From Haplodiscus bocki (lineage: Eukaryota), in the NCBI GenBank assembly GCA_965655095.1, contig OZ296655.1:27528001-27592000 (forward strand): a stretch of 64,000 bases of DNA, read 5' to 3'. The number at the start of each line of letters is the position of its first letter. Positions within the stretch are counted from its first letter, which is position 1. Positions 33,501 to 56,600 of this stretch are shown here, piece after piece. Below the pieces are notes generated by a model. That model saw only the letters and a program-made list of their open reading frames with translations. It had not been told where the DNA came from and did no database searches. The position numbers and the translations under genes are program-made.

Positions 33501-35696
33501 TATCGATGTGCTTGCTGATTAACTGTGTTTCCTTGCAGCTTCATCTCATATGGATCCATGAAACCTCGGATGTAAGTATAGACTGGGATGGATGAACCAC
33601 ATATAGAAACAGGTCTTAAGGAACTGCATACAGTTGGTTGTCGCACATGATAAGTAATAGGTTCTTGTGGAGCCACAATTTGTTTGAAAGACAATGATCA
33701 CCGGATGGACATATCTGGTCGTACACCTGGATTAGATTCTTCAAATTCAATATCCCACATTTCAAATTGTATGCAATGGCTAGCTCCTGTGGGAATACTA
33801 CGGGGTGTCTTTTGGGAGCAGGCACGTCAGTTAGAATAGAAATTTTCTAATTATGTTTGAGTCAGATCTATAGCAGAGCGGATGTTCTCCTGGAGCTCGT
33901 TGGCTCTGAAATTAGACTCCTTGATCAGAGCATTCACTTTTTTTCAATCGCTCCCGCTTGACTGAGGTAGGCAGATTTGCCTCTTCGGTGGAACGTATGA
34001 TCTTCTTGAAGGTTGTCGGTGCATCAGATAGAGCGCGCTTGAACTGATTGGATGGAGCACTGTAAATTGAAGCAGCAGCAGTGACTGATTCATACACCCG
34101 ATGCATAATGGCACACTGACATTCTCAACTGGGTGTTTCTGCACTACTCAACTTAATAGTTTTCTAAATGGGGATACCGGATTGCTGGCTGTTGGGGAGA
34201 ATGATGGTGAGATGCAGTTTGTTCCAAGGCTACAGGAGCATCAAGGTGTTCTCTTCTGTCTCGGAACTCATCATATTGGTAGAATTCAGTCAATTGCTTC
34301 TTCACCCCATCAAACATCTTGTGAAACTCACTGACACCTGCAAGAATCTGGGTCCATGCGGGAGAAAATTTTATGCCGATAGGCACAGCTTGGACAAAAA
34401 TCTGCAATTGTACTGTCTGGATTAAAGTAGGTCTCAACAATAGCATGTTAAACCTCTTCCTCCTCCTCTTCAACTCTGCGAGAAAGGATAAAACTTTGTT
34501 TTGTCTTTATAAAAGAGATGGTCAAACACCAGAAAATCGATGTGCTGGTTGATGGAGATGTTCTCAAGACACCACCTTCAGATCCGCAAGCACAGTGTCT
34601 GAGAGATAATTTTTTTCTTGTTTTAACGGGTGAGGGTAGATGATCCAGAAGTCTCCTCAGGCTTCACAAAAACCACTACCCTGCACAGAATTTTCGCAGT
34701 TCGTTCATGAACTCTGTATTGTAATGTGATGTCAAATTCGAAACAACCCTGGTAGCTGGCATTACATCAATACCACACACAACGTTCTTCCCGGATGATG
34801 CTTTGGACCCTGTGTAACTATGTATCTTCTTGAAGGCACTCACTTTCAATCCAGTCATCCATCCCCATATGTCCTGGAGAATACCCTCGTTCCCTCCGAG
34901 GTGACCAGTCCTTGTTCTAGATTCTGTCTCTGGGGTCCCGGGAACAACAGATGCGGAAGGTGAATAAAAGCCTCCCTACCGGTGAACTGGTTGGTGAAAT
35001 GTCATACGACACCTCTCGGTCAAGTGGTCCTACTCGAGGATGTCATTTGCTATCCTGAAAAACGGCATTTCAAGCTCAAGCTGGAAGAAGAGGTTCCAAA
35101 ATATAAAATCAATCTCATTGATAACCCGTGACCGTGAGTATCAACTTTTTTTGATAGTTTGTCAAACCGATGATTCAACTGATCGCCAATCTCGGTAACA
35201 GGCTTGTATGAAGAACTTGGTATCATGTACTGGCGGAATTTTTTAACACTGGCATTTATCATTCGAGGTATGAAATGTTGGGTGATTAGTGTTGCTTTGA
35301 ACTCTTTCTTCAAAGTCGGCTTGACAACGAGGTCAGCTAGTTCAAATCCATAGGACTCAATCAGGTCTCCATGCTCTTTAAGGTCCATTTGTTTTAATGT
35401 TCTGACTGTCATCTTGTACTTGTCTCTGACATCTCTTGCAAAACAGTTTTTGAGATGAGGGGCTTGAGGAGATTGGCTTTTGTCCTTAATGGTTGCGACT
35501 GGGCCAATATGATAGTCAAATTTATACATACAACTTTCCAAATTTAACCTTAATAATCTCCCCTGTCCCACAGGTCAGCAGCATTTGGTGGGTCTTTCTC
35601 CTCTGCTAGCTTGTGGAAACTTGGGCACAAAGAATCCAAATTCGTTATCAGGGGCCATTTCTTTCTACGGTGGTAATGGTAGGCTATCATGGCTAC
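3573..35696 (-). pseudogene. L: Twelve further full copies plus one LTR-truncated copy of the viral L pseudogene fragment
   Basis: Approximate copies: 3573-6072, 6155-8663, 8746-11245, 11328-13836, 13919-16430, 16513-19026, 19109-21533, 21616-24123, 24206-26708, 26791-29298, 29381-31887, 31970-34476 and 34559-35696 (truncated). All carry the motif A-D region, with stops and frameshifts. Confidence 0.88.
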
Positions 35697-36190
35697 TGTA
35701 ACATTCCATGTTACGATCGGAATGCTGAAAGCATGTCCATATGAGAAGAACGCCCATTTAAACTCAAAACTCCTAACCTCCCACTCTCTTAATCACCCTT
35801 CAATCATTTAATGACGCCACATTCTTTCGATGAACTTCAAATTTTAGAACTTATCTTAGAGTCAAAATGATGCTTAATTTAGATAAATATGTCAGATTAC
35901 GGAAATACCTCATGATTTAAATTGTCTCTTATCATTATCTTCGGCACATATAAATTTTGATATATAACAAGCGGCGACGCAGTACAGAAAAGTTGAATTC
36001 AAAAATCTGCAAAACTAACCAATTCTTCGAAAGCTTGAAGAGTTATAGAACAGATCACTTGTAGCAAGTCAAACCGCGGGACCTCGCATCCAAAAAGAAC
36101 ATTGAATCTGAAATACTTTGAGATTACTAAATACCCGCTCAGGCTTAAGGAAAACACTACGAAACACAGAAGACGACGTGCGATCTTAGA
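35697..36190 (+). repeat. Putative 5' LTR (~494 bp)
   Basis: Begins TGTAACA exactly where the satellite sequence is interrupted and ends ...CTTAGA (probably a decayed ...TTACA) immediately before a PBS. There is no second copy in the window, so the end is inferred from the PBS. Confidence 0.7.
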
Positions 36191-36204
36191 TGGTGACAGG
36201 AGTG
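36191..36204 (+). promoter_or_regulatory. Primer-binding site, tRNA-Leu-like
   Basis: TGGTGACAGGAGTG matches the typical tRNA-Leu PBS TGGTGTCAGGAGTG at 13 of 14 positions and lies between the putative LTR and gag. Confidence 0.7.
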
Positions 36205-36632
36205 TGCGACGACGAGCTACACTGTGATCATCTACAACGACAACTGAAGAATCTGGACTGCTGGTCTAAAATAGAAGCAGCAGGACGATCCTGACAAAAC
36301 CAGAAAATTGGGAACTCTACTTCTATTGGGAAATACAAACGACACTCTAGCCCAACACTAGTGCAAAGATGAAGCTGAAAACGATTTTGGTTGCCTGTAA
36401 GTTTCACATTCCTTCTTTTCCTAGAGAGTTTTAGAAGCAGTAAAATCATCTCAATTGAAATCATCGCTTTAACTTAGAGCGCCGAAGTAGTAAATTTATT
36501 TTGAGGTAGTAACTACTAAAATTCCCGTTTTTCTAAATTGATTCATTCCGTCATTCCTTGTCTGTAGATTTTCGATCCGCTCAAATAAGCCCGTCACTCT
36601 TGAATTTTCGAAAACCTTGGTAATTTGCAAAA

Positions 36633-37880
36633 ATGGCAGCAGCAGCTCAATCTACAGTAAGCCTACCAAAATACGCCGGAAGTTCAACAGACAACTGGAC
36701 AGATTTTGAATCTTTATTCCGTAGTATAGTTGAAGTTACAGGAATTGCTGATGCACAACGAGTAGAATTTTTGAAACTACACTTAAAAGACTCAGCATTA
36801 CAATTTTTCCACACACTAGACCAAAAATCCAGAGCAGACTTAGAATTAACATTAACAGCGTTGAAAAATCATTTTTGCAATCCAAACTTGAAAGAAATAC
36901 ATCATATCAACTCAGAAAATATTAAATTTAATCACAAAACAGAATCACCGGAAGAATTTTTGCTCAAACTTCAAAATTTAGCTCTGAAAGCTTATCCAAC
37001 ACCGGTTGATATACCAGTAGCACCTGTAGATGGAGACGTACCAAATGACCAGGACAGATTCGATCGAAAAACACGAGAAAATCAAAATTTTTGCGCAAAT
37101 AGAAAGAGAAAGACATGTAATTCGTCTCTTCAAAAAAGCAATGCCAAACTTCATCAGATTAAAACTTCTGGAAGAACCAGAGGATGCAACTATCCAAGGA
37201 TTATGCACAAAAGCAAGACAAAAACTGATTCTTAGAGAATTATGTCCAGTTGACGATTTGTCAAGAGACGGATTTAATGAGATGAGCTCTGAAAATTCAA
37301 AAATTTCTAACGGTTCTCACAAAAATGTCTGAAAATCAAAACTCCCTTGAAAACAGATTTGATGCCTTGACGCAAAAGCTTAATTCACCGCAACAAAATT
37401 CATCAAATAACTATAAGGACAATGAACAACAAACTTGGCGAGGGAATTTCAGAGGCCGAACGTACCAAAATAGAGGAAACCGAGGATATTCAAATAAATC
37501 AAGGATATCAAAATCGAAGCTATCAAAATCAAGGATCGAATAATTATCAAAACAACCAAGATCGCGGCAGATATGGTAATAATTTAAATCGAGTAGGCTA
37601 TCGAGGGAGAAATAACTTTAGAGGCAATAATGGAGGAAACTTCTCGAATAACTATAACAATAATTTCACTAACAACAATTTTCAGCAGCAAGGATATCAA
37701 AGTAACGAAACAACATTAAACACTGGAAATTCAGGAGGGCATATTGAAACTACTGCATTTTCACAAAAAGTTTGCTATGGTTGCGGTTATCCAAATCATA
37801 CCTCTCGAAATTGTGAAGCTAGAGGAAAAAGCAGTACCAGAGGTGGACAAATACCGTTCAACTCGCAACCAAAAAACTAA
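36633..37880 (+). pseudogene. gag: gag (frameshifted): capsid-like N-terminus, N/R/G-rich region, CCHC zinc knuckle
   Basis: ORF pieces 36633-37235, 37030-37332, 37325-37543 and 37422-37880. LPKYAGSSTDNWTDFESLF...LKLHLKDSALQFF is a retrotransposon-gag pattern. CYGCGYPNHTSRNC (37773-37814) fits CX2CX4HX4C. Confidence 0.88.
37871..37877 (+). promoter_or_regulatory. -1 programmed ribosomal frameshift slippery heptamer A_AAA_AAC at the gag/pol junction
   Basis: gag ends CCA AAA AAC TAA. The pol ORF (37928) is in the -1 frame relative to gag, and the heptamer fits X_XXY_YYZ. Confidence 0.72.
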
Positions 37881-37927
37881 TAAAGCCACACACGTCAGCC
37901 AGTCCATAGAAAAACATTAACTTCACT

Positions 37928-39265
37928 ATGCACACCAGAGATAACATTTTAGAAACTTCAGAACAAGTAACGCACCCAGAGAAGACTCTAACCAATAAAA
38001 ATGAATGGTTAGAAATGAAATTAATGTTGGAAATTAATGAAGTTATTCTGCTTGAAGGAGAAAACCTCATGTATATTCCATTGAAATCTGAAAATAAGTT
38101 ACGCAGGAGAGCACTAATCGACACAGGGGCATGTGCAAACGCAATGCCAGCGGATTTTTATACAAAATTGAAACAGGAATCCCCTAATTTCATTTCCGAA
38201 TTACAACAAGCCTCATTTTTGAATGTAAAACTAGCCTCTGGGCGAACAGTAAAAGTTTTAACTCAGGTGGATGTTAAATTCAAAGTTAATGACCACAATT
38301 TTCAAGATAGTTTTCTGATACTTCCTTCAATGAATAGTGTTGTTCTAGGGAACCCGTTTTTCAAAAAATATAATATTGAAATCAGTCCTGGCGAAAATCT
38401 TTTGAAACTGCCAGAAATGACTTATCAGCTCAATGAGATAGCAATACCCAAGGAAGGAAGACGCAAAATTCCAAAAAGTAGATATCCAGTTTTTATGTGC
38501 CAAAAAACAACTGTCAAGCCTCAAAATCAAGAAATTCTCTACACACAAATAGAATTTTCAAAAAATCTTGAAGTACACATAGGAGCGATAATTCCACTTG
38601 AAGAATATGAAAATAGTACGGAGTTGAAACTGTCATCATCTGTTGTTACAGTCGGAAAAGACAATATCGTATCCATATTAGCTCTCAACCTCAATGATCA
38701 TTCAATAACCTTTCCGAAAAACAAACAAGTAGCAGTTTTCCAAATTCTTTCACCACAAGAGGAAGAAAAACTGATAGACATTGGACCGGAACTCCTAGCG
38801 CTGGACAAAATGAAAAACGGTGAACTTTTGAATCAAATAAATCAATTTTTACGAGTTAGAAATAACAGAAGTAGCCGACAGCCCAAACGTCCATCGCCTG
38901 AGTACGATAAAATTTGGTTTCCGACCCCAGAAACATGTCAAAACCCGGAAAATCTACCCCTACTTCAGAGGGAAGTTTTCGATAATATTTCTGAATTACA
39001 ACAACGCGATTCACTTCATCCGCAGTCTAACGAAAAAGATAAAGAAACATTTCTGAAACAGTTCGACTGGTTAAAATCATCATTAAATGCAGATCAGATT
39101 GCTGAAATGCAACATCTTTTGATTGAATATTATGACACTTTTGCAAAGCATCGCTTCGATGTTGGTTATAATACAGAATTGAAAGTGAAATTAACACCGG
39201 CACATGATTTACCAGTCTATGTTCAAAGTCCGCCAACACCAATTCATTTGAGAGATGAAATCTGA
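37928..39265 (+). pseudogene. pol: pol part 1: aspartic protease, possible dUTPase-like spacer domain, start of RT
   Basis: ALIDTGA catalytic motif and VVLGNPFF flap-like motif; in frame with 39281 across a single TGA. Confidence 0.9.
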
Positions 39266-39280
39266 GTTGAATTAGCCCTA

Positions 39281-40333
39281 ATGCAATATTATGGCATTGT
39301 CACACTTTTACCAAATTCTAACTATAGCAGTCCAATGTTTGCACAACGCAAGCCGTCAGGGAAACTGAGAATATTAATCGATTTGAGGCGTGTTAATCAC
39401 CTCCTTCGAAATGATTACAGCGATAACAATTTCCCAATTTCAAATATGACATACGCCGTTCATCATTTTGCAGGAAAGACCTTGTTTACCAAGTTAGATT
39501 GTTCACAAGCTTATCATTGCGTTCAAATGGCTGACCCCTTGTCAGTCCAACTCTTCTCATTCAACTTCTCTTCTAGAACAAACGCCTACACGAGATTAGC
39601 TCAAGGATTAAACAAATCAGTGACAGGATTTAGCTCATTTGTCAGATCTTATCTTGACTCTTGTCTTGCAGCTAATTTATGTACACAGTATATGGATGAT
39701 ATCGGATGTGGAGTGGAAACATTTCAACAAATGATTCCAACTCTTGGACAAATATTTGACTGTTTGAGAAAATCAGGACTCCGATTGACACCACATAAAT
39801 GTGAACTTCGAATGACCTCAATTAATTTTCTTGGCAATACAATAACACCTCAAGGACTAAAACCTGTAACGGAGAAAATCGAAAATTTTCTGAAAACGAT
39901 GAAACTACCAGCAACAGTGCGACAAGTGAAACGCGTGGTAGGATTTGTCCTATTTTTCCGTTCATTTTCACCAAACTTGGCACAAAATTTGATGCCGTGG
40001 TATAAATTATTACGCAAAGACGTTGAATTTGAACTACAAGATGACCATTTGAAAAGTTTTGAAACAATAAAGAAAGACTTGTTACAAGCAACGAAAACAA
40101 CCCTACAATTAGCAAAACCAGGACAACAATACGTAATCCTATGTGACGCTAGCTACTACAGTAGCGAATTTGTTTTAATGATAGAAGATTACTTAGTAGA
40201 AAAGGATGGAAAGAAAAAACAAGCGTATGCACCAGTCTCCTTTGGTTCACAATTGTTCAATACAAGTCAATTGAAAATGTCTACATACTGTAAGGAATGT
40301 TTGGCACTGTATTTTGCTCTAGAACATTTCTAA
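39281..40333 (+). pseudogene. pol: pol part 2: reverse transcriptase and RNase H
   Basis: YSSPMFAQRKPSGKLRILIDLRRVN, KLDCSQAYH and YMDD (39689-39700); RNase H ILCDAS and KECLAL. Confidence 0.95.
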
Positions 40334-40360
40334 CACTTCATTTGGGGTGCAGAAAAACCA

Positions 40361-42668
40361 GTGATAGTTTTGACTGATAACAAAAGCCTAACAAGTTTTT
40401 TTCAATCAAAATCACTCTATCCATCGCTTTGGAACTTTATGGATAGAGTAATTGCGTATAACATAGTATTAGCGCATATTCCAGGAAAGGCGAATGCTGC
40501 AGCAGACTTTTTATCAAGAATGCAAACAGATCCTAATGAAAGTCTCGAACTTCAATTAGTAGATTCGATTCCGATGAAGCAATTAGAAATAAACATGAAA
40601 GCAAAAACACCTGATGTAGCAATGCTAGCAATAGAATCAGTTCAAGAAATTGAAGCAAAACCTGCTGTACCTAAAGACCTGATCGAAAAAATTCAATCTA
40701 ATGATGCGCTACAGCATTTGATTCCAAATTTGAACGAAATACTGAAATCAGCATCGAATGATCAGACACCCGAACTTTACGCTATAAAAAGAGCAACCGA
40801 AATAAACTCAATACAAGAAAAAGATCCGATGAATTTTTTTCAAGTGTCCAGCTTAAATTCAAAGGCATTAGATATTGAAACTGAGCAGAAAAAAGATCCT
40901 GTATTACGAAAGGTAATGACATGGATTGACACCGGATGCAATGATGATCTAACATATGCATCTCTTGAATTCAGAAAGTATTATAAACATCTCACGCGTC
41001 TACAAATGCAAAAAGGTATTTTGGTCCGTCAATTTTTCGATGACGTAGGAAAAATTTCACATTACCAAATATGTGTTGTGAAACATCTGAAGAAAGAAGT
41101 AGTCTACAGAATACATAACTCACCAACAGCGGGAAATCTTGGAATTGTTCGCACAGCGAAAGAGTTTAGACAGCGATTCTACTTTCCAGGATTCACAGAA
41201 TTCCTCACAGACTACATCAAAAATTGTCTGTCATATTCAACCCTGAAAAGAGTTTCCAAACGACAAATAAATCCACCTTTGCAGCCTATATCATCAGAGC
41301 AACTTTTACCTGGTGATATGATGCAAATTGATTCAGTTGGACCGTTCCAATCGCCTGTTTACAAATACGTCTTATCAGGCATAGATGTCTTTTCCAAATA
41401 CTTATTTGCAATACCCTTAACATCTGCACACGCTGGAGGCATTAGTTTCTATATTCTTTCAACATATTTATATCCCTACAACTATTTTGTCTGGTTTGGG
41501 AACGAGTTTTGCAAAATTGCTGCATGAACTCACTAACCTATTAGAAATTAAACTGCAACATGCTTCTTTGAAGCATCCACAATCAATCGGGGTAGTTGAA
41601 AGATCTCATTCTGCATTGAAGCGGATTCTGAAACTCAATACAGACGAAAAATGGACAACGTGGTACAAATATGTTGACCTAGCAACATTTATACTCAATA
41701 CTTCGTATCATTCATCTCTTGGATGCACACCTAGTTCTTTATTTCATGGACGAGAGCCTATTAAACCAATTGATTTGAGATTTAGAAGTCATACACTCGC
41801 TCAAAAAGAACTTACCTCAGACTATTTAGTCGATTTGCAGGATTCGTTACTGCAAAAGTTTTCGCATACCAAATCTCGTTTATTAGATGCTTATCATAAA
41901 TATCGAACCTACTATGCTAAAAAAGCAGCAGCAAAACTATTAGTACAAAAACAGCATTGCTTACTACTAAACCCTTCGTTATTGACACAAAGTGATTTTG
42001 CAGCCAAATCTTGCACTATATGGCTTTCATTATACAAAATTGAAAAAGTCTTGACAAAATCTAACTGCTTGATTAGAAAAATCGGTACACCGTACACGCA
42101 ATGTGTCCACCGCATACGACTAAGACCGATAACGCCTAATTATGACGTGGAAGATATCAATGTAACGATGCAAGCTTTCAAACCTGACCCTTCTTTGGGA
42201 AAATACCGTTCTGAACATGAAATTTTCGATGAAGCGCTTGAAAACTACCTAAATGAGGACATCGTTGAGATGCCAGAAGTTCCGACGACTGACAGTAACA
42301 GAACAGACGAAGTGCAACACACAATACGTGGTGTAATAACGCCAGCCACGACAGAACAGCCAGCGCCAGCTGGAACTGCAGAGCCAGCCGCAGTTATTGA
42401 AGAGGCAGACACAGTGCCCCCGTTCCCACCACCACCCGTACCTGGATCAGACGAAACCGCGCGATTGGACGACGAAAATTTTCCTGAACCTACTCACCTA
42501 AACGACCCGATCCAGATACAGGCCACAAGCTCTCAGCAATCTCCGACGACCGAACGAACCTATCCTACAAAAACTGACGAGGGAGCCGCATTGTCGACGG
42601 AAGATCCTACGCGTCATCAACGGATGACCAGACAGTCGCAAATACCTATTGCACCTCATAGTTCATAA
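40361..42668 (+). pseudogene. pol: pol part 3: RNase H C-terminus and integrase (frameshifted, catalytic and zinc residues mutated), low-complexity tail
   Basis: TDNKSL and HIPGKANAAADFLSR; decayed HHCC (HNSPTAGNLG...CLSY); core QIDSVGP, IDVFSKY, HPQSIGVVERSH and NTSYHSSLGCTP. There is a frameshift between ORFs 40361-41527 and 41487-42668. Confidence 0.92.
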
Positions 42669-42911
42669 ACAAAAACTCCGCCACGGCAGAGACTTAGATT
42701 CGATAGCTATGACCTTTTTTGGGACATTCTCACGAGAAGAGCACTAACTGAAGGTGGTTACTATAAATTTCTAAATCAGCAAGAATTAGAGCTCCCGCTA
42801 TCAAAGGAAGAAAAACGCAGAATATTAGTAAATACCGCACAGAAAACGAGACCTATTTCACAATCGGGGATCCCAGTTCCTAACATAAATAAGACACCAG
42901 AGAAGTCTATT

Positions 42912-43571
42912 TTGAAAAAACGATATCCCGAACGCTCTAATCGAGGACAGCCTCCTCCGTCTAACGACATTTATTCAGCTAGTTTTCAACTGAATATGTG
43001 CGCTAATTCAATTGAAAGCGTTGACCTTCCTGAAAATGTTCGAATTTTACAGGGAGACCTATTCCGAGACCAAACCGCAAATTTTGGACACTGTGTTTCA
43101 TCTGATTTGGCAATGTCAGCAGGAATCGCTACACAATTTGTGCGAATATACCCTGAATTGGAAAACTTACGCCCGCATTATCGAAATTTAAAGGCAGGAT
43201 CTCTAATTGCGCACCTTTCAAGCCAAAATGGCAATTGGATTTACAATTTGGTAACAAAAAATAAACGTTATGATAGACCGACTTATTTAAACTTACGAAA
43301 AAGTCTCTGTCGCATGAAACGTCATATGTTAACGTATGCAATCAAAGAAATCAACTTACCACAAATCGTGTGTGGACTTGATAAATTAGAATGGGCACGA
43401 GTTTTCAATATAATACTGTGCTTATTTGCCAATACTGATCTTCGGGTCAACATCTTCTTGCAGAAAGTTCACGTGAATTCCAACCTTGACAATACTCTTC
43501 TCGCGGAAGAATATCTGAACGACGAAAAACACGAATGGACATATTCCACATGGCTAATGCACGAAAATTAG
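42912..43571 (+). CDS. Macrodomain, TARG1/OARD1 (Poa1p-like) ADP-ribose glycohydrolase type, C-terminal extension of Pol
   Basis: GDLF...GHCVSSDLAMSAGIATQF...IYNLVTK...PTY.NLRKSL..MK.H......INLPQIVCGLDKLEW aligns motif by motif with TARG1 (GDLF, AHCISEDCRMGAGIAVLF, IYYLITK, PTYENLQKSL, MPRIGCGLDRLQW). It is in the same frame as 41487-42668 and open from 42669. Confidence 0.9.
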   Translation: MKKRYPERSNRGQPPPSNDIYSASFQLNMCANSIESVDLPENVRILQGDLFRDQTANFGHCVSSDLAMSAGIATQFVRIYPELENLRPHYRNLKAGSLIAHLSSQNGNWIYNLVTKNKRYDRPTYLNLRKSLCRMKRHMLTYAIKEINLPQIVCGLDKLEWARVFNIILCLFANTDLRVNIFLQKVHVNSNLDNTLLAEEYLNDEKHEWTYSTWLMHEN

Positions 43572-43992
43572 CTTTTGAAGGAAGCTCAAAACGCCTATTC
43601 ATTAACCGAAACGACCGCGCAATCGAGCTGAGGTCAATTAATTTTCAGCGACGTACTTAGAATACACAGCCCACCGATAATTGATGCAATTTTGATGTTG
43701 ACCGATCTTCACAAATCCGATACTTAGTGCGATCAACCGATTAGTTAGCAAATACCTTTATCAACTCTTTGGCGTCTTACTGTCTGATACAAGTGACTTC
43801 AATATTTACTTAAGATAAGAGTTCGCAGTACTAGCTGTCAATAAATTCTAATCAAAAATAGCCACTCAATACTTATCAGAAGTCAAATTAGAGTTCAAAT
43901 TTCAGAAATAAAGCCCTCATAGGTCAACTTACTGCCTTAGCAAAGCGTACAAGCTCCTCGGATTACATTCCATCACATTCAAAGGACTGAAA

Positions 43993-44298
43993 ATGAATAA
44001 CCTCTTTTGGGGCTATCAGCACCGTACTCTAACATGCGAGATATTCCATAATATCACGATTAGAAGAATTGAACATCGTGGACTAACTCCACCACGTCTT
44101 CGACTTTATACAGAGAGGTGGCACCACCAAATGCTGGTGTTTGATGAATTTAATGTCCTACCGCATACATTTGAATGGAGTGCACTGATTGACTCCGCCA
44201 GGCAATATGCTGATAGCGAAGAGCTGCAAAATTTTGCTGACTGGCTTATCACAGTCGAGCACCCACAAAGGCGCACATTTTTCTTCATGTTCTTGTAA
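43993..44298 (+). CDS. Small orphan protein, paralog 1 of 3 (101 aa)
   Basis: ATG ORF sharing M..L.W, C(E/D)(I/V), PP, P...(E/A)W..L...A...A and DW(L/M) with the two downstream ORFs. Confidence 0.65.
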   Translation: MNNLFWGYQHRTLTCEIFHNITIRRIEHRGLTPPRLRLYTERWHHQMLVFDEFNVLPHTFEWSALIDSARQYADSEELQNFADWLITVEHPQRRTFFFMFL

Positions 44299-44357
44299 CA
44301 TGACACCTGAACTCGCTTATTGATCTTGGATCAATCATCATTAATCTTATCAGCCTC

Positions 44358-44393
44358 TATAAAAACACAGATTTTCCACTTCTATCATCAGTC
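44358..44393 (+). promoter_or_regulatory. Candidate Pol II core promoter (TATA + Inr) for paralog 2
   Basis: TATAAAA at 44358-44364, TCAGTC at 44388-44393 (canonical ~30-bp spacing), then CACCATG with ATG at 44425. Confidence 0.5.
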
Positions 44394-44424
44394 TTAACTC
44401 AGTCATTCAACGTTAGATACCACC

Positions 44425-44706
44425 ATGAGTCGTTTATTTTGAAGAATTCCCATCACTAGATACACATGTGATATTCATGGCGTTCCTGTGGTTTGGAGAG
44501 CGACCCCTTCATACATCACCCCCCGAGTGGATTTCACAATCCGTTATTGGAGTCAAGGAGAACTCATATACAAAGATTTTACAATTTACCCGGAATCACC
44601 GGAATGGAGCACACTCATGAGTGCCGCTGCTCCCTACGCTCATGACTTCAACTTGGCTGAAGATCTCATGGACTGGATGAGCAGACAATTTCGAAGCCAT
44701 TTGTGA
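44425..44706 (+). pseudogene. Small orphan protein, paralog 2 of 3 (TGG>TGA at codon 6)
   Basis: Reads MSRLF*RIPITRYTCDIHGVPVVW..., in frame with ORF 44488-44706. The stop sits at the Trp conserved in paralogs 1 and 3. Confidence 0.65.
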
Positions 44707-45038
44707 ATTCAGATCATGACATCACTCCAGCTCATGATATCATAACCTTAATTACACTTATAGACAGAACTATCTTTTCATGAATATTCCCAGGAAAAAA
44801 AATAAAAAAACACCCAAACTTTTTCATTGAGTCACAATATCTGAGTTTTTAAAAATCCAATTTAGGAATTGTTCATTCATTAGGACAAAATATTTCTTTG
44901 ACATCAGTTTTGCTTGATGAAAAACAAACAAATTTGCAGTTAGACTTTCTAGAGACTATGAGAACGCTTGACAGCTCTCGTCATTGTTGCATTCTCCTGC
45001 GCGTATGCTAATATTTTCGAGCAGTTTCAGTTTTAAAA

Positions 45039-45347
45039 ATGCACCATTTAAATTGGCTTTATTCCCACGAATATTATGTTTGCGACGTTTTTGGGAGAGT
45101 TCAACTAGTCGGTATTAGCGGCGAATTTGGCTACCCCCCACTGATATTGACATTCCGCCGACGGAATTATGGCCATTTGTTGTATTGGCACGACCCTATA
45201 TTCCCTAACACCCCAGCTTGGAATGAGCTGATCGCATGCGCAGCCCGTAACGCGGAATCAGCCAGCCAAGATTCACTCGTCGACTGGCTAATTCACCTTG
45301 ACGTCTTTGCCATCCAATCCATGTCTTGGTATAATCAGAGCGAATGA
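45039..45347 (+). CDS. Small orphan protein, paralog 3 of 3 (102 aa)
   Basis: MHHLNW...CDVFG...YPPL...IFPNTPAWNELIACAARNA...LVDWL follows the same pattern as 43993-44298. Confidence 0.65.
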   Translation: MHHLNWLYSHEYYVCDVFGRVQLVGISGEFGYPPLILTFRRRNYGHLLYWHDPIFPNTPAWNELIACAARNAESASQDSLVDWLIHLDVFAIQSMSWYNQSE

Positions 45348-46308
45348 CTGTAATAACATTTTGAATGGTAACTTTAATTTTCTAATTCATTCTATCAGTA
45401 TAATTTTTCATTTTACACTTTCTCAAAATTGACCTTTTTTTTCCTTGTTTTCTCTTATATCGCACGAGACGCTATAAGGAATTTAATTGGAAAAAAAACT
45501 GACACTAATAAAATTGTCAGATGGTAACGGCAACCCCCTGAATACTTGCAGACGGACGTTTTCCGCTCTTTGACCTTGTAAAGTTTGGACAAACAAGACC
45601 ATCAACTTTGATATGTTTTAGTCTCAGTGACCATAACTTTTCCTCAATTTTGTGCTCGAAAATACAAAATCCGCCATGTACGATTTTTCGCCCTCCTGTT
45701 GGCCTTCTTTTGAAGCACCTTTTATGGCCTAATATTCGTCATACATATATAAAAAAACCGAGGCCATATTATCCTCCGACAACTCAGCGCCGAAGAGTCA
45801 TTTTTACCTGTTTTTTTTTCGGATAACAAACACTTCTTTTTCAACTTTTTGGCAGAAATTCAAAAATCCACCACCAAAGTTCGGTAGAGCTGGTGTTTGG
45901 CCGTTGATAGGTGGAGGATAGGATCCCTATCCTGACCTCTCTTCAAAGGGGACAAAAATTGAAAACACTGAGTTCTAACAAATTTCCTCTGAAAATCGCT
46001 GTTTTTCATTTCTTTATTCTGTTTTTTTTTTCTCAATGCTTCATGCGTTCGTTTTTTTTTCGGAACAAAAGAATTACTTGAACCATGTATTTACCAGTTG
46101 CATCCTCAGATTGCCACTTGCGACATGATAACAATCATGATACGGTGCTTAATTACCGTTTCTTCTTTATTTCACTCATAGCAGCCTGCTCCCAACCTGT
46201 TATAACACATTGCAACATACAATTAATACTAACGAAAATAGGGTGGAACACAGCATTACGTTGGGACCATTATAGACAAAGGACTCACGAACACTCTCTT
46301 AACGTTTT

Positions 46309-46821
46309 TCAATTCTTGCATGCGTGCAGCCTTCTTTTGCACTCTCGGGAGATTATTTGTTCTTCTTTGATGCCGTGATTTTCGACCTTTCTTGCCCCAC
46401 CAAAAATTTTTCCGTCCACTTTGAAACACTCCACATGTTGCCCAAGTTCTGTCTTACTCCGCCCAGTATCACGTAAATAATTAGATAGAGTAGTGTAGGT
46501 ACACGTGTGGACGGCCAAGAATTTTGTCTCTTTGCGCATTCCAGGGGAATAATAATTGAGCACTTGTCTTTGTCGCAGGTCATCCTCTACAAGCTTAGCT
46601 TCAAAGCCAGCGACAATAGCTGGCCCTTCAGAGAGCGTTATCACCGTATGAGCACATAAACCAGGTTGAATCATTAGTGAAGTCGGAGTAGTCACATAAA
46701 ACCTTACCTTATTTCGAACAGCATTAGTTGAAGGCCCTTTTAGTAGAAAGTTTACCAACGCTTTCGTACTTTGAAGGAGCTTCTCTAATAATCTCGAGTG
46801 ATACCCACGTTCAGCATTGAT
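46309..46821 (-). pseudogene. 5'-truncated ORF with a cupin/JmjC-like C-terminal motif, repeated in every array-2 unit
   Basis: TTPTSLMIQPGLCAHTVITLSEGPAIVAGFE resembles the JmjC/cupin 'PG..l.iP....H.V.T....i..G' strand. The frame stays open upstream of the called start (INAERGYHSRLLEKLLQSTKALVN) up to the junction at ~46821. Confidence 0.45.
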
Positions 46822-46845
46822 CGTGGGTATCCTACGATGTCACGT

Positions 46846-47682
46846 ATTATTTTGTGACATTGCTCAGTTCTAGGGCCGCTGAAGCTGACAATTCACCAAT
46901 ACATTTCCGAACTAACAATTGCAACTTGTCCGAAGGATGGATAGAACCTAATTTCCATTCAGTGTATCTTCTTTAAAAGACTTGAGGTAAGAATTCTTGA
47001 TCAGCTTGATCGGATCTTCCATGTTGACCATATTGTTGATCAATCCATGTAAATATTTTGCCTCCACTGCACTCTCAACAGGAGCAGTTTCATCATTTCG
47101 TGCTTCCACCGAAAAAAATAGCGGAGGTGTTGGTGTGCTTGCTGATTAACTGTGTTTCCTTGAAGCTTCATCTCATATGGATCCAGGAATTCTCGGAGGT
47201 AAGTATAGACTGGGATGGATGAACCACATATAGAAACAGGTCATAAGGAACTGCATACAGTTGGTTGTCGCACATGATAAGTAATAGGTTCTTGTGGAGC
47301 CACAATTTGTTTGAAAGACAATGATCACCGGATGGACATATCTGGTCGTACACCTGGATTAGATTCTTCAAATTCAATATCCCACATTTCAAATTGTATG
47401 CAATGGCTAGCTCCTGTGGGAATACTACGGGGTGTTTTTTGGGAGCAGGCACGTCACAGTTAGAATAAAAATTTTCAATTATGTTTGAGTCAGATCTATA
47501 GCAGAGCGGATCATGTCATGGAGCTCGTTGGCTCTGAAATCAGGCTCCTTGATCAGAGCATTCACTTTTTTCAATCGCTCCCGCTTGACTGAGGAAGGCA
47601 GATTTGCTTCTTTGGTGGAACGTACGATCTTCTTGAAGGTTGTCGGTGCATCAGATAGAGCGCGCTTGAACTGATTGGAGGG
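46846..47682 (-). pseudogene. L: ~0.84-kb internal fragment of the viral L pseudogene, present in each complete array-2 unit (9 copies)
   Basis: Near-identical to array-1 positions ~2236-3070 (from ATTTTGTGACATTGCTC to CTGATTGGAGGG); ORF MPAPKKHPVVFPQEL is shared. Confidence 0.93.
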
Positions 47683-50600
47683 AAAACCGAGGCCATTTTA
47701 TCCTCCGACAACTCAGCGCCGAGGAGTCATTTTTACCTGTTTTTCTTCGGATAACAAACACTTCTTTTTCAACTTTTTGGCAGAAATTCAAAAATCCACC
47801 ACCAAAGTTCGGTAGAGCTGGTGTTTGGCCGTTGATAGGTGGAGGATAGGATCCCTATCCTGACCTCTCTTCAAAGGGAACAAAAATTGAAAACACTGAG
47901 TTCTAACAAATTTCCTCTGAAAATCGCTGTTTTTCATTTCTTTATTCTGTTTTTTTTTCTCAATGCTTCATGCGTTCGTTTTTTTTCGGAACACGAGAAT
48001 TACTTGAACCATGTATTTACCAGTTACATCCTCAGATTGCCACTTGCGACATGATAACAACCATGATACGGTGCTTAATTACCGTTTCTTCTTTATTTCA
48101 CTCATAGCAGCCTGCTCCCAACCTGTCATAACACATTGCAACATACAATTAATACTCACAAAAATAGGGTGGAACACAGCATTACGTGAAGACCAGTATA
48201 GACAAAGGACTCACGAACACTCTCTTAACTTTTTTAAATTCTTGCATGCGTGCAGCCTTCTTTTGCACTCTCGGGAGATTATTTGTTCTTCTTTGATGCC
48301 GTGATTTTCGACCTTTCTTGCCCCACCAAAAGTTTTTCCGTCCACTTTGAAACACTCCACATGTTGCCCAAGTTCTGTCTTACTCCGCCCAGTATCACGT
48401 AAATAATTAGATAGAGTAGTGTAGGTACACGTTTGGACGGCCAAGAATTTTGTCTCTTTGCGCATACCAGGGGAATATTAATTGAGCACTTGTCTTTTTC
48501 GCAGGTCATCCTCTACAAGCTTAGCTTCAAAGCCAGCGACAATAGCTGGCCCTTCAGAGAGCGTTATCACCGTATGAGCACATAAACCAGGTTGAATCAT
48601 TAGTGAAGTCGGAGTAGTCACATAAAACCTTACCTTATTTCGAACAGCATTAGTTGAAGGCCCTTTTAGTAGAAAGTTTACCAACGCTTTCGTACTTTGA
48701 AGGAGCTTCTCTAATAATCTCGAGTGATACCCACGTTCAGCATTGATCGTGGGTATCCTACGATGTCACGTAGGATTTTGTGACATTGCTCAGTTCTAGG
48801 GCCGCTGAAGCTGACAATTCACCAATACATTTCCGAACTAACAATTGCAACTTGTCCGAAGGATGGATAGAACCTAATTTCCATTCAGTGTATCTTCTTT
48901 AAAAGACTTGAGGTAAGAATTCTTGATCAGCTTGATCGGATCTTCCATGTTGTCCATATTGTTGATCAATCCATGTAAATATTTTGCCTCCACTGCACTC
49001 TCAACAGGAGCAGTTTCATCATTTCGTGCTTCCACCGAAAAAAATAGCGGAGGTGTTGGTGTGCTTGCTGATTAACTGTGTTTCCTTGAAGCTTCATCTC
49101 ATATGGATCCAGGAATTCTCGGAGGTAAGTATAGACTGGGATGGATGAACCACATATAGAAACAGGTCATAAGGAACTGCATACAGTTGGTTGTCGCACA
49201 TGATAAGTAATAGGTTCTTGTGGAGCCACAATTTGTTTGAAAGACAATGATCACCGGATGGACATATCTGGTCGTACACCTGGATTAGATTCTTCAAATT
49301 CAATATCCCACATTTCAAATTGTATGCAATGGCTAGCTCCTGTGGGAATACTACGGGGTGTTTTTTGGGAGCAGGCACGTCACAGTTAGAATAAAAGTTT
49401 TCAATTATGTTTGAGTCAGATCTATAGCAGAGCGGATCATGTCATGGAGCTCGTTGGCTCTGAAATCAGGCTCCTTGATCAGAGCATTCACTTTTTTCAA
49501 TCGCTCCCGCTTGACTGAGGAAGGCAGATTTGCTTCTTTGGTGGAACGTATGATCTTCTTGAAGGTTGTCGGTGCATCAGATAGAGCGCGCTTGAACTGA
49601 TTGGAGGGAAAACCGAGGCCATTTTATCCTCCGACAACTCAGCGCCGAGGAGTCATTTTTACCTGTTTTTCTTCGGATAACAAACACTTCTTTTTCAACT
49701 TTTTGGCAGAAATTCAAAAATCCACCACCAAAGTTCGGTAGAGCTGGTGTTTGGCCGTTGATAGGTGGAGGATAGGATCCCTATCCTGACCTCTCTTCAA
49801 AGGGAACAAAAATTGAAAACACTGAGTTCTAACAAATTTCCTCTGAAAATCGCTGTTTTTCATTTCTTTATTCTGTTTTTTTTCTCAATGCTTCATGCGT
49901 TCGTTTTTTTTCGGAACACGAGAATTACTTGAACCATGTATTTACCAGTTACATCCTCAGATTGCCACTTGCGACATGATAACAACCATGATACGGTGCT
50001 TAATTACCGTTTCTTCTTTATTTCACTCATAGCAGCCTGCTCCCAACCTGTCATAACACATTGCAACATACAATTAATACTCACAAAAATAGGGTGGAAC
50101 ACAGCATTACGTGAAGACCAGTATAGACAAAGGACTCACGAACACTCTCTTAACTTTTTTAAATTCTTGCATGCGTGCAGCCTTCTTTTGCACTCTCGGG
50201 AGATTATTTGTTCTTCTTTGATGCCGTGATTTTCGACCTTTCTTGCCCCACCAAAAGTTTTTCCGTCCACTTTGAAACACTCCACATGTTGCCCAAGTTC
50301 TGTCTTACTCCGCCCAGTATCACGTAAATAATTAGATAGAGTAGTGTAGGTACACGTTTGGACGGCCAAGAATTTTGTCTCTTTGCGCATACCAGGGGAA
50401 TATTAATTGAGCACTTGTCTTTTTCGCAGGTCATCCTCTACAAGCTTAGCTTCAAAGCCAGCGACAATAGCTGGCCCTTCAGAGAGCGTTATCACCGTAT
50501 GAGCACATAAACCAGGTTGAATCATTAGTGAAGTCGGAGTAGTCACATAAAACCTTACCTTATTTCGAACAGCATTAGTTGAAGGCCCTTTTAGTAGAAA

Positions 50601-53600
50601 GTTTACCAACGCTTTCGTACTTTGAAGGAGCTTCTCTAATAATCTCGAGTGATACCCACGTTCAGCATTGATCGTGGGTATCCTACGATGTCACGTAGGA
50701 TTTTGTGACATTGCTCAGTTCTAGGGCCGCTGAAGCTGACAATTCACCAATACATTTCCGAACTAACAATTGCAACTTGTCCGAAGGATGGATAGAACCT
50801 AATTTCCATTCAGTGTATCTTCTTTAAAAGACTTGAGGTAAGAATTCTTGATCAGCTTGATCGGATCTTCCATGTTGTCCATATTGTTGATCAATCCATG
50901 TAAATATTTTGCCTCCACTGCACTCTCAACAGGAGCAGTTTCATCATTTCGTGCTTCCACCGAAAAAAATAGCGGAGGTGTTGGTGTGCTTGCTGATTAA
51001 CTGTGTTTCCTTGAAGCTTCATCTCATATGGATCCAGGAATTCTCGGAGGTAAGTATAGACTGGGATGGATGAACCACATATAGAAACAGGTCATAAGGA
51101 ACTGCATACAGTTGGTTGTCGCACATGATAAGTAATAGGTTCTTGTGGAGCCACAATTTGTTTGAAAGACAATGATCACCGGATGGACATATCTGGTCGT
51201 ACACCTGGATTAGATTCTTCAAATTCAATATCCCACATTTCAAATTGTATGCAATGGCTAGCTCCTGTGGGAATACTACGGGGTGTTTTTTGGGAGCAGG
51301 CACGTCACAGTTAGAATAAAAGTTTTCAATTATGTTTGAGTCAGATCTATAGCAGAGCGGATCATGTCATGGAGCTCGTTGGCTCTGAAATCAGGCTCCT
51401 TGATCAGAGCATTCACTTTTTTCAATCGCTCCCGCTTGACTGAGGAAGGCAGATTTGCTTCTTTGGTGGAACGTATGATCTTCTTGAAGGTTGTCGGTGC
51501 ATCAGGTAGAGCGCGCTTGAACTGATTGGAGGGAAAACCGAGGCCATTTTATCCTCCGACAACTCAGCGCCGAGGAGTCATTTTTACCTGTTTTTCTTCG
51601 GATAACAAACACTTCTTTTTCAACTTTTTGGCAGAAATTCAAAAATCCACCACCAAAGTTCGGTAGAGCTGGTGTTTGGCCGTTGATAGGTGGAGGATAG
51701 GATCCCTATCCTGACCTCTCTTCGAAGGGAACAAAAATTGAAAACACTGAGTTCTAACAAATTTCCTCTGAAAATCGCTGTTTTTCATTTCTTTATTCTG
51801 TTTTTTTTTTCTCAATGCTTCATGCGTTCGTTTTTTTTCGGAACAAGAGAATTACTTGAACCATGTATTTACCAGTTGCATCCTCAGATTGCCACTTGCG
51901 ACATGATAACAACCATGATACGGTGCTTAATTACCGTTTCTTCTTTTTTTCACTCATAGCAGCCTGCTCCCAACCTGTTATAACACATTGCAACATACAA
52001 TTAATACTCACAAAAATAGGGTGGAACACAGCATTACGTAGAGACCAGTATAGACAAAGGACTCACGAACACTCTCTTAACTTTTTTAAATTCTTGCATG
52101 CGTGCAGCCTTCTTTTGCACTCTCGGGAGATTATTTGTTCTTCTTTGATGCCGTGATTTTCGACCTTTCTTGCCCCACCAAAAATTTTTTCCGTCCACTT
52201 TGAAACACTCCACATGTTGCCCAAGTTCTGTCTTACTCCGCCCAGTATCACGTAAATAATTAGATAGAGTAGTGTAGGTACACGTTTGGACGGCCAAGAA
52301 TTTTGTCTCTTTGCACATACCAGGGGAATAATAATTGAGCACTTGTCTTGTCGCAGGTCATCCTCTACAAGCTTAGCTTCAAAGCCAGCGACAATAGCTG
52401 GCCCTTCAGAGAGCGTTATCACCGTATGAGCACATAAACCAGGTTGAATCATTAGTGAAGTCGGAGTAGTCACATAAAACCTTACCTTATTTCGAACAGC
52501 ATTAGTTGAAGGCCCTTTTAGTAGAAAGTTTACCAACGCTTTCGTACTTTGAAGGAGCTTCTCTAATAATCTCGAGTGATACCCACGTTCAGCATTGATC
52601 GTGGGTATCCTACGATGTCACGTAGGATTTTGTGACATTGCTCAGTTCTAGGGCCGCTGAAGCTGACAATTCACCAATACATTTCCGAACTAACAATTGC
52701 AACTTGTCCGAAGGATGGATAGAACCTAATTTCCATTCAGTGTATCTTCTTTAAAAGACTTGAGGTAAGAATTCTTGATCAGCTTGATCGGATCTTCCAT
52801 GTTGACCATATTGTTGATCAATCCATGTAAATATTTTGCCTCCACTGCACTCTCAACAGGAGCAGTTTCATCATTTCGTGCTTCCACCGAAAAAAATAGC
52901 GGAGGTGTTGGTGTGCTTGCTGATTAACTGTGTTTCCTTGAAGCTTCATCTCATATGGATCCAGGAATTCTCGGAGGTAAGTATAGACTGGGATGGATGA
53001 ACCACATATAGAAACAGGTCATAAGGAACTGCATACAGTTGGTTGTCGCACATGATAAGTAATAGGTTCTTGTGGAGCCACAATTTGTTTGAAAGACAAT
53101 GATCACCGGATGGACATATCTGGTCGTACACCTGGATTAGATTCTTCAAATTCAATATCCCACATTTCAAATTGTATGCAATGGCTAGCTCCTGTGGGAA
53201 TACTACGGGGTGTTTTTTGGGAGCAGGCACGTCACAGTTAGAATAAAAGTTTTCAATTATGTTTGAGTCAGATCTATAGCAGAGCGGATCATGTCATGGA
53301 GCTCGTTGGCTCTGAAATCAGGCTCCTTGATCAGAGCATTCACTTTTTTCAATCGCTCCCGCTTGACTGAGGAAGGCAGATTTGCTTCTTTGGTGGAACG
53401 TATGATCTTCTTGAAGGTTGTCGGTGCATCAGGTAGAGCGCGCTTGAACTGATTGGAGGGAAAACCGAGGCCATTTTATCCTCCGACAACTCAGCGCCGA
53501 GGAGTCATTTTTACCTGTTTTTCTTCGGATAACAAACACTTCTTTTTCAACTTTTTGGCAGAAATTCAAAAATCCACCACCAAAGTTCGGTAGAGCTGGT

Positions 53601-56600
53601 GTTTGGCCGTTGATAGGTGGAGGATAGGATCCCTATCCTGACCTCTCTTCGAAGGGAACAAAAATTGAAAACACTGAGTTCTAACAAATTTCCTCTGAAA
53701 ATCGCTGTTTTTCATTTCTTTATTCTGTTTTTTTTTTCTCAATGCTTCATGCGTTCGTTTTTTTTCGGAACAAGAGAATTACTTGAACCATGTATTTACC
53801 AGTTGCATCCTCAGATTGCCACTTGCGACATGATAACAACCATGATACGGTGCTTAATTACCGTTTCTTCTTTTTTTCACTCATAGCAGCCTGCTCCCAA
53901 CCTGTTATAACACATTGCAACATACAATTAATACTCACAAAAATAGGGTGGAACACAGCATTACGTAGAGACCAGTATAGACAAAGGACTCACGAACACT
54001 CTCTTAACTTTTTTAAATTCTTGCATGCGTGCAGCCTTCTTTTGCACTCTCGGGAGATTATTTGTTCTTCTTTGATGCCGTGATTTTCGACCTTTCTTGC
54101 CCCACCAAAAATTTTTTCCGTCCACTTTGAAACACTCCACATGTTGCCCAAGTTCTGTCTTACTCCGCCCAGTATCACGTAAATAATTAGATAGAGTAGT
54201 GTAGGTACACGTTTGGACGGCCAAGAATTTTGTCTCTTTGCACATACCAGGGGAATAATAATTGAGCACTTGTCTTGTCGCAGGTCATCCTCTACAAGCT
54301 TAGCTTCAAAGCCAGCGACAATAGCTGGCCCTTCAGAGAGCGTTATCACCGTATGAGCACATAAACCAGGTTGAATCATTAGTGAAGTCGGAGTAGTCAC
54401 ATAAAACCTTACCTTATTTCGAACAGCATTAGTTGAAGGCCCTTTTAGTAGAAAGTTTACCAACGCTTTCGTACTTTGAAGGAGCTTCTCTAATAATCTC
54501 GAGTGATACCCACGTTCAGCATTGATCGTGGGTATCCTACGATGTCACGTAGGATTTTGTGACATTGCTCAGTTCTAGGGCCGCTGAAGCTGACAATTCA
54601 CCAATACATTTCCGAACTAACAATTGCAACTTGTCCGAAGGATGGATAGAACCTAATTTCCATTCAGTGTATCTTCTTTAAAAGACTTGAGGTAAGAATT
54701 CTTGATCAGCTTGATCGGATCTTCCATGTTGACCATATTGTTGATCAATCCATGTAAATATTTTGCCTCCACTGCACTCTCAACAGGAGCAGTTTCAATC
54801 ATTTCGTGCTTCCACCGAAAAAAATGGCGGAGGTGTTGGTGTGCTTGCTGATTAACTGTGTTTCCTTGAAGCTTCATCTCATATGGATCCAGGAATTCTC
54901 GGAGGTAAGTATAGACTGGGATGGATGAACCACATATAGAAACAGGTCATAAGGAACTGCATACAGTTGGTTGTCGCACATGATAAGTAATAGGTTCTTG
55001 TGGAGCCACAATTTGTTTGAAAGACAATGATCACCGGATGGACATATCTGGTCGTACACCTGGATTAGATTCTTCAAATTCAATATCCCACATTTCAAAT
55101 TGTATGCAATGGCTAGCTCCTGTGGGAATACTACGGGGTGTTTTTTGGGAGCAGGCACGTCACAGTTGGAATAAAAATTTTCAATTATGTTTGAGTCAGA
55201 TCTATAGCAGAGCGGATCATGTCATGGAGCTCGTTGGCTCTGAAATCAGGCTCCTTGATCAGAGCATTCACTTTTTTCAATCGCTCCCGCTTGACTGAGG
55301 AAGGCAGATTTGCTTCTTTGGTGGAACGTATGATCTTCTTGAAGGTTGTCGGTGCATCAGATAGAGCGCGCTTGAACTGATTGGAGGGAAAACCGAGGCC
55401 ATTTTATCCTCCGACAACTCAGCGCCGAGGAGTCATTTTTACCTGTTTTTCTTCGGATAACAAACACTTCTTTTTCAACTTTTTGGCAGAAATTCAAAAA
55501 TCCACCACCAAAAATCGGTAGAACTGGTGTTTGGGCGTTGATAGGTGGAGGATAGGATCCCTATCCTGACCTCTCTTCGAAGGGAACAAAAATTGAAAAC
55601 ACTGAGTTCTAACAAATTTCCTCTGAAAATCGCTGTTTTTCATTTCTTTATTCTGTTTTTTTCTCAATGCTTCATGCGTTCGTTTTTTTTCGGATCAAGA
55701 GAATTACTTGAACCATGTATTTACCAGTTGCATCCTCAGATTGCCACTTGCGACATGATAACAACCATGATACGGTGCTTAATTACCGTTTCTTCTTTAT
55801 TTCACTCATAGCAGAGCCTGCTCCCAACCTGTTATAACACATTGCAACGTACAATTAATACTAACGAAAATAGGGTAGAACACAGCATTACGTCGGGACC
55901 AGTATAGACAAAGGACTCACGAACACTCTCTTCACTTTTTTCAATTCTTGCATGCGTGCAGCCTTCTTTTGCACTCTCGGGAGATTATTTGTTCTTCTTT
56001 GATGCCGTGATTTTCGACCTTTCTTGCCCCACCAAAAATTTTTCCGTCCACTTTGAAACACTCCACATGTTGCCCAAGTTCTGTCTTACTCCGCCCAGTA
56101 TCACGTAAATAATTAGATAGAGTAGTGTAGGTACACGTTTGGACGGCCAAGAATTTTGTCTCTTTGCGCATACCAGGGGAATAATAATTGAGCACTTGTG
56201 TTTTTCGCAGGTCATCCTCTACAAGCTTAGCTTCAAAGCCAGCGACAATAGCTGGCCCTTCAGAGAGCGTTATCACCGTATGAGCACATAAACGAGGTTG
56301 AATCATTAGTGAAGTCGGAGTAGTCACATAAAACCTTACCTTATTTCGAACAGCATTAGTTGAAGGCCCTTTTAGTAGAAAGTTTACCAACGCTTTCGTA
56401 CTTTGAAGGAGCTTCTCTAATAATCTCGAGTGATACCCACGTTCAGCATTGATCGTGGGTATCCTACGATGTCACGTAGGATTTTGTGACATTGCTCAGT
56501 TCTAGGGCCGCTGAAGCTGACAATTCACCAATACATTTCCGAACTAACAATTGCAACTTGTCCGAAGGATGGATAGAACCTAATTTCCATTCAGTGTATC

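Follow-up and report, generated by a model that had tools for sequence, protein, structure and literature searches.

A decayed Gypsy retrotransposon copy of Haplodiscus bocki carries, downstream of a pol gene with a predicted macrodomain at its end, a cassette of three small open reading frames (ORFs A, B, and C) which, judged by their protein sequences, are paralogues. They were found in a window of 64,000 nucleotides, the whole stretch of DNA that was analysed and to which all coordinates below refer. The three co-oriented ORFs that the original prediction had placed downstream of pol are all present at the coordinates it gave:

43993..44298, + strand: accessory ORF A, 101 aa; AG at 43983-43984
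44425..44706, + strand: accessory ORF B, 93 codons with an in-frame stop at codon 6; AG at 44415-44416
45039..45347, + strand: accessory ORF C, 102 aa; AG at 45029-45030

Unlike in the window copy, with its stop at codon 6, ORF B is open in many other copies. It is possible, and we hold this view tentatively, that the three small proteins, predicted to be soluble, are host-binding accessory proteins which counter host defence. Below, we describe the element and its macrodomain, the family to which the three ORFs belong, their predicted structure and expression signals, and the roles that such a cassette might play.

The Gypsy copy and the macrodomain of its pol

The window begins with a tandem array of ~2,588-bp units (1-35697), followed by a unique 10-kb block (35698-45753) and then by an array of ~1,926-bp units. 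Pfam matches of successive ORFs in the unique block correspond to gag, protease, reverse transcriptase (RT), RNase H, and integrase, in this order and interrupted by stops and frameshifts. The block represents a Ty3/Gypsy retrotransposon copy that has decayed, with the following features upstream of the cassette:

35697..36190, + strand: probable 5' LTR of ~490 bp with a TGT start; array similarity stops at 35697, and the 3' end is placed by the primer-binding-site-like sequence
36191..36205, + strand: primer-binding-site-like sequence with a TGG start, read from the sequence
36633..37880, + strand: gag in several broken frames, with a CCHC knuckle at its end (Pfam)
37928..42995, + strand: pol with protease, RT, RNase H, integrase, and a long low-complexity linker, containing stops and frameshifts (Pfam)
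42996..43582, + strand: TARG1/OARD1-type macrodomain at the C terminus of pol (phmmer against human C6orf130/OARD1)

The gag matches (DUF1759, E 6e-5; Retrotrans_gag, E 0.004; zf-CCHC, E 0.18) were all below the cut-off, and those in pol were to gag-asp_proteas (E 1e-4), RVT_1 (E 2e-20), RT_RNaseH_2 (E 4e-11), and Integrase_H2C2 (E 4e-10). At the 5' boundary, a contig of run X6 begins at 35696 and is preceded by 28 unrelated bases, representing another insertion, and an X4 contig continues past 35697 into the array, representing an empty site. A second LTR was not found within the 64-kb window, and the right-hand array restarts in a sequence other than the continuation of the insertion site. 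Thus, the 3' end of the Gypsy copy, including its 3' LTR, appears to have been lost. Across 36.2-45.3 kb, summed contig depth was even; it was raised at 35751-36167 and reduced beyond 45342, which is to be taken as a hint and not as a copy number. The sequence is present in four runs of one organism and, to a small extent, in runs labelled coral or coral-reef metagenome, one of which covers 29 of 30 bins at 85% likeness. Other copies seem to depart from the window sequence near 45415. The last ~340 bp of the unique block (45415-45753) occur in neither array, contain a short inverted repeat near 45500-45522, and are possibly the remnant of another insertion.

Within each of the flanking arrays (1-35697 and 45754-64000), units are 92-98% alike, an 840-bp segment is common to both arrays at 95%, and only short broken frames were found in them. 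Two units of the right array at 54678-56904 match the left-array reference at 98% ungapped and their neighbours score 69%, a pattern suggesting either that the two arrays exchanged sequence or that a small indel occurred. An identity of the arrays as RNA-gene arrays received no support, with no tRNA detected in the window and no Rfam match in 30000-50000.

The macrodomain in the window, seen in the ORF at 42996-43571, is clearly homologous to human C6orf130/OARD1 (phmmer E 5e-25 over residues 12-154). The positions of the catalytic lysine and aspartate of TARG1, which we take to be K84 and D125 in the human protein, align and are kept in the window copy, and of 15 long macrodomain copies, 9 have both catalytic motifs. 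In two other copies, P0202 and P0232, the integrase core and the macrodomain lie in a single reading frame, and the open integrase-linker-macrodomain ORF of P0202 maps onto 40622-43582 at 87-95%. The macrodomain is therefore assigned to the C terminus of pol, as a predicted ADP-ribose eraser joined to integrase through the low-complexity linker. ORF A starts ~410 nt downstream of the macrodomain end. Between the first and a second macrodomain subfamily, identity is 55-62%, and further groups stand at about 50% and 40%, which suggests that several Gypsy subfamilies carry a TARG1-type macrodomain.

Domains behind integrase and macro domains in retroelements both have precedents, here and below as far as the accessible portions of the cited papers describe them. 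Chromoviruses carry a chromodomain behind integrase, at the site that the macrodomain occupies here (10.1101/2021.11.30.470311). Macro domain ORFs occur in fish epsilon-like endogenous retroviruses, according to a review citing Basta et al. 2009 (PMC4977317). In contrast to these ORFs, the domain of the Haplodiscus element is fused in frame behind the integrase of a Gypsy pol and precedes a triple ORF cassette.

Paralogy, distribution, and conservation of the A/B/C family

A shared protein signature combined with little DNA similarity had been proposed for the three ORFs, and both parts of this proposal hold. BLOSUM62 local alignment of the proteins yielded scores of 93 (A-B), 108 (A-C), and 92 (B-C), none of which was reached in any of 10,000 shuffles per pair (means 26-27, maxima 62-67), at identities of 23/84, 24/88, and 21/72, respectively (25-30%). 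DNA scores of 18-20 were at shuffle level (means ~18, maxima 28-30). No fourth paralogue was found by tblastn of the window.

A profile built from the three ORFs retrieved 40 homologues from 49 candidates, comprising 18 A-type, 16 B-type, and 6 C-type sequences. Where they align, each shows 70-96% identity to one of the window ORFs; many are truncated or frameshifted, and clusters of homologues comprise as many as 39 members. A profile run against 1.84 billion representative proteins gave 29 matches, all belonging to the A/B/C family, and added A', which is 55-57% identical to A, and several types of 83-129 aa with ~30% identity to A/B/C. Among these cluster representatives, the longest match had 129 aa, and neither fusions nor much longer versions of the proteins were encountered. 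In the A' cluster (n=16), 14 of the 15 members listed have 101 aa. A second search with a wider alignment matched 39 of 490 candidates without bringing in a new subfamily. P0087, P0088, P0091, P0092, P0097, P0101, and P0102 are further subfamilies, mostly of 94 aa and with ~30% identity to A/B/C. In a tree of 23 rows, separate clades were formed by A together with A', by B, by C, and by several groups of 94 aa, the deeper order being weakly supported and long-branch joins being possible. The homologues derive from ENA and, in a few cases, from JGI/IMG, and carry no informative names. They may all represent one species, and the family seems not to extend beyond one host or its close relatives. 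Nucleotide locus searches of JGI metagenomes, viral contigs, and prokaryote genomes gave nothing but short chance matches (L001-L005; one at probability 18%).

In agreement with the view that the family is undescribed, A, C, and codons 7-93 of B matched 0 Pfam families and received no PHROG or PDB-sequence assignment. Two weak single-member Pfam matches among 18 (E 0.07-0.08), one PHROG match in 1 of 11 members (E 0.007), and the best hits of the PDB sequence search (E 0.14 and 0.2) were taken as chance. In the ESM Atlas, P0013 obtained feature scores of at most 0.79 and structure rows below the naming bar, and P0091 no usable match. Neither the A/B/C family nor a TARG1-fused Gypsy pol nor a triple paralogous cassette was found in the literature, which was covered in part and without Repbase.

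Association of the cassette with this Gypsy family was assessed on ENA contigs of at least 2.5 kb, with equal contig size as a proxy for contig identity. Among the matches listed, 46 contigs bear a close macrodomain copy, and 21 of these matched one of 68 A/B/C contigs by this proxy (6 of 12 when contigs <60 kb were considered), compared to 0 of 31 control contigs carrying A' or 94-aa types (Fisher p 3e-6), which upholds the proposed link of A/B/C to the element. By the same proxy and among the matches listed, 14 contigs were common to A and B, 9 to A and C, 5 to B and C, and 4 to all three. A' contigs had 0 in common with the 46 close macrodomains (size proxy, among the matches listed), and the 8 contigs of the second macrodomain group included 2 in common with A' and 1 with A/B/C among the matches listed, which hints weakly at another subfamily of elements that has a cassette of its own with A'. 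For the 94-aa types, 2 of 15 matched close macrodomain contigs and 0 of 15 A/B/C contigs (size proxy, among the matches listed). P0092 and P0101 share one contig by the size proxy, hinting at another multi-gene cassette.

These distributions bear on the question of whether the three ORFs are a passive passenger, namely a host gene cluster that the element acquired or that simply adjoins it. LTR elements can transduce genes, as noted in the accessible text of PMC7264820, the boundary of the window copy is unseen since its 3' LTR is absent, and the size proxy does not tie the 94-aa subfamilies to an element. However, dozens of dispersed copies at 70-96% identity, many of them decayed, are found on pol-macrodomain contigs by the size proxy, a second subfamily retains an open 101-aa frame at 55% identity, and none of the homologues bears an informative name; we consider a passenger improbable. 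The pattern of gene loss is relevant to a further possibility, a selfish addiction or exclusion module composed of a toxin and antidotes or interfering with competing element families. Such a module might explain why several small paralogues are kept together and why subfamilies have different sets, yet no similarity to toxin families was detected in Pfam or PHROGs, and copies lose A, B, or C singly through stops and frameshifts, a kind of loss that would be opposed in an antidote-dependent module, provided that it is expressed. Its prospects are accordingly very slight.

The original prediction further held that the family is maintained under protein-level selection. Identity between the window paralogues was 0.42-0.46 at codon position 1, 0.51-0.55 at position 2, and 0.26-0.34 at position 3, a contrast that is inflated because the alignment was made on protein, and residues identical between paralogues are encoded by the same codon in 22 of 64 cases. 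Mismatches between A and A' had a mean BLOSUM score of -0.09 compared to -0.66 +/- 0.24 in simulated random decay to 55% identity, in which the frame stayed stop-free in 87 of 1,000 runs. The distance between A and A' (55-57%) equals that between the two macrodomain groups (55-62%), i.e., A diverges no faster than the enzyme domain. Third codon positions near saturation and the pace of divergence of A relative to the macrodomain thus argue for selection acting on the protein, as had been claimed, and the conservative A-A' mismatches agree with this. Within A and within C, mean mismatch scores were -0.36 and -0.54, respectively (simulated neutral, -0.49), and most copies look like products of neutral decay after insertion, as would be expected of dead copies.

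Predicted structure and expression signals

The cassette lies at the position of env. As noted previously, no transmembrane segment is evident: in 10 of 10 family members, Kyte-Doolittle hydropathy averaged over 19 residues peaked at 0.59-1.06, and Gly at residue 2, part of the MGxxxS/T myristoylation motif, was absent from all 10. No long ORF with a signal peptide and a transmembrane anchor, as would be characteristic of env, was found, the ORFs having 93-102 aa. Isoelectric points range from 4.1 to 7.8 (n=10), making the family neutral to acidic. An AlphaFold2 model based on 18 sequences (pLDDT 86, pTM 0.77; earlier model, pLDDT 68) places strands at residues 2-8, 21-31, 34-44, and 47-55 and helices at 60-71 and 76-89, corresponding to a predicted soluble domain with a four-stranded antiparallel sheet packed on two helices. 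It is conceivable that the cassette replaces env and mediates cell-to-cell passage of particles, similarly to the FAST-like sORF2 of insect MDG1 elements, considering its env position, the similar size of the proteins, and possible splicing. Nevertheless, this is extremely improbable. A transmembrane stretch and Gly at residue 2 both define sORF2/FAST candidates in the accessible part of the MDG1 study (10.1101/2025.03.14.642691), and the model is that of a globular soluble domain. Such a predicted domain, lacking a membrane segment, argues against env and against a FAST-like fusogen.

All 10 subfamily representatives have Cys15, Leu48, Pro57, Trp62, and Ala69 as invariant residues. The conserved columns are mostly hydrophobic or proline and include no His, Asp, or Glu, a pattern more in line with a binding domain than with an enzyme. 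That the proteins are small enzymes with Cys15 as nucleophile or metal ligand is very improbable, even though this residue is invariant in 18 of 18 aligned sequences and sits in a loop of the model, and although bdelloid LTR elements have enzymatic extra ORFs according to the available text of PMC5408684. An active site would have no second conserved polar residue to draw on, and the domain comprises only ~90 residues. In a fold search with both models against 48,161 representatives, no chain reached Z >=5 (best 4.4), which does not establish a new fold. For the second model, none was found at Z 5 among the Foldseek top 1,000, and at a Foldseek E of 0.001 there was nothing in the PDB (first model only) or among viral models. 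An EF-P-like chain of KOW/SH3-like type (8s8u_B; Z 4.4, rmsd 3.0, 55 aligned) and the USP37 PH domain (3u12_B; Z 4.2, rmsd 3.3, 76 aligned) were tied with unrelated rows.

Each of the three ATGs is preceded by AG at exactly 8 nt, following a moderately pyrimidine-rich stretch (57-63%). This offset is seen at 11 of 167 ATGs in the element, and three random ATGs share any offset of 0-20 in 0.3% of draws, a figure to be read with the pattern having been noticed before the test. Two more signals were considered:

36397..36402, + strand: candidate splice donor GTAAGT in the leader, between the primer-binding-site-like sequence and gag; could be chance
44358..44364, + strand: TATA-like box ~30 nt before an initiator-like TCAGT, upstream of ORF B, read from the sequence

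The candidate donor is one of 3 GT[AG]AG sites in the 10-kb element. In read-through translations, copies of B and of C have the same residues upstream of the start, and the A copies P0081, P0230, and P0014 have different residues there; the AG offset may not hold across A copies. Taken as a best guess, the signals suggest splicing of the leader donor to an acceptor before each ATG, by which each gene would be translated from its own subgenomic mRNA. An internal promoter would fit ORF B equally well, and internal promoters are possible. AATAAA occurs between pol and A at 43840 and 43907, between B and C at 44801, and after C at 45507, as possible internal polyadenylation sites.

Possible roles of the cassette

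LTR retrotransposons are known to carry extra ORFs, usually a single one, and most of these have no known function. Additional same-strand coding sequences that follow pol and are retained by many copies of a family have been described, with splicing reported for Bagy2 (PMC7264820; PMC5408684, accessible portions). Compared to these extra ORFs, the Haplodiscus element has three paralogous genes instead of one, and A/B/C are without a membrane segment and, by Pfam, are neither GDSL esterases nor DEDDy exonucleases. Drosophila MDG1 elements provide a likeness in that sORF1 and sORF2 are small accessory ORFs (~70-110 aa) of an env-less Gypsy element (10.1101/2025.03.14.642691). In the accessible part of that study, the MDG1 sORFs are located upstream of gag, unspliced, and helical, sORF2 is a membrane protein, and they are not described as paralogues, whereas A/B/C are downstream of pol, predicted to be alpha/beta and soluble, and paralogous. 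There are thus already records of extra ORFs that follow pol and of macro domains in fish endogenous retroviruses, and the noteworthy features here are the triplication, the family without assignment, and the macrodomain fusion.

Complex retroviruses possess small 3' accessory genes, such as vif, vpr, and nef, and foamy viruses possess bet. Like these, A/B/C are small, located at the 3' end, plausibly spliced from the leader, and plausibly host-binding. We use this as a working analogy only, since no sequence relation was found and the element is a Gypsy element without env. An anti-silencing or counter-defence role, suggested in the original prediction and tentatively proposed here, draws on this analogy and on the neighbouring macrodomain, and the fusion of an ADP-ribose-removing macrodomain to pol makes it more plausible. 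A, B, and C stem from ancient duplications, and we speculate that a conserved core with divergent surfaces could let them bind different host targets. The macrodomain might strip ADP-ribose marks from proteins or nucleic acid of the element.

The conservation and linkage evidence fits equally well with proteins that serve the element's own cycle by exporting unspliced RNA, regulating splicing or transcription, assembling particles, or mediating nuclear import. Divergence of A no faster than that of an enzyme domain is slow for an arms-race protein, and there are precedents. CERV of the Caenorhabditis elegans element Cer1 is required for genomic RNA export (PMC10309623, accessible text), and sORF1 of MDG1 elements is nuclear (10.1101/2025.03.14.642691, likewise). 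On the other hand, the neutral to acidic proteins have no basic nucleic-acid-binding patch evident in their sequences, and a single housekeeping job would give little reason for keeping three copies at 25-30% identity. We regard a role in the element's own cycle as rather unlikely, without dismissing it.

It is tempting to extend the counter-defence proposal to the element as a whole. An env-less Gypsy lineage would then have independently evolved the layout of a complex retrovirus, with an integrase-fused ADP-ribose eraser and an expanding, spliced family of new fold, comprising at least 8 deep subfamilies, of which each paralogue would disarm a different host factor. This broader scenario we consider unlikely. 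The weight of the findings is limited by the family seeming to be confined to one host or close kin and by the functional role being inferred. Still, a triplicated, deeply diverged, and constrained family of soluble proteins offers easy baits for transposon-restraining host factors outside model animals, and an integrase-fused TARG1-type domain provides a testable case for ADP-ribosylation acting against Gypsy elements. If the broader scenario holds, it would point to ADP-ribosylation and to as yet unknown restriction factors as anti-transposon defences in the host.
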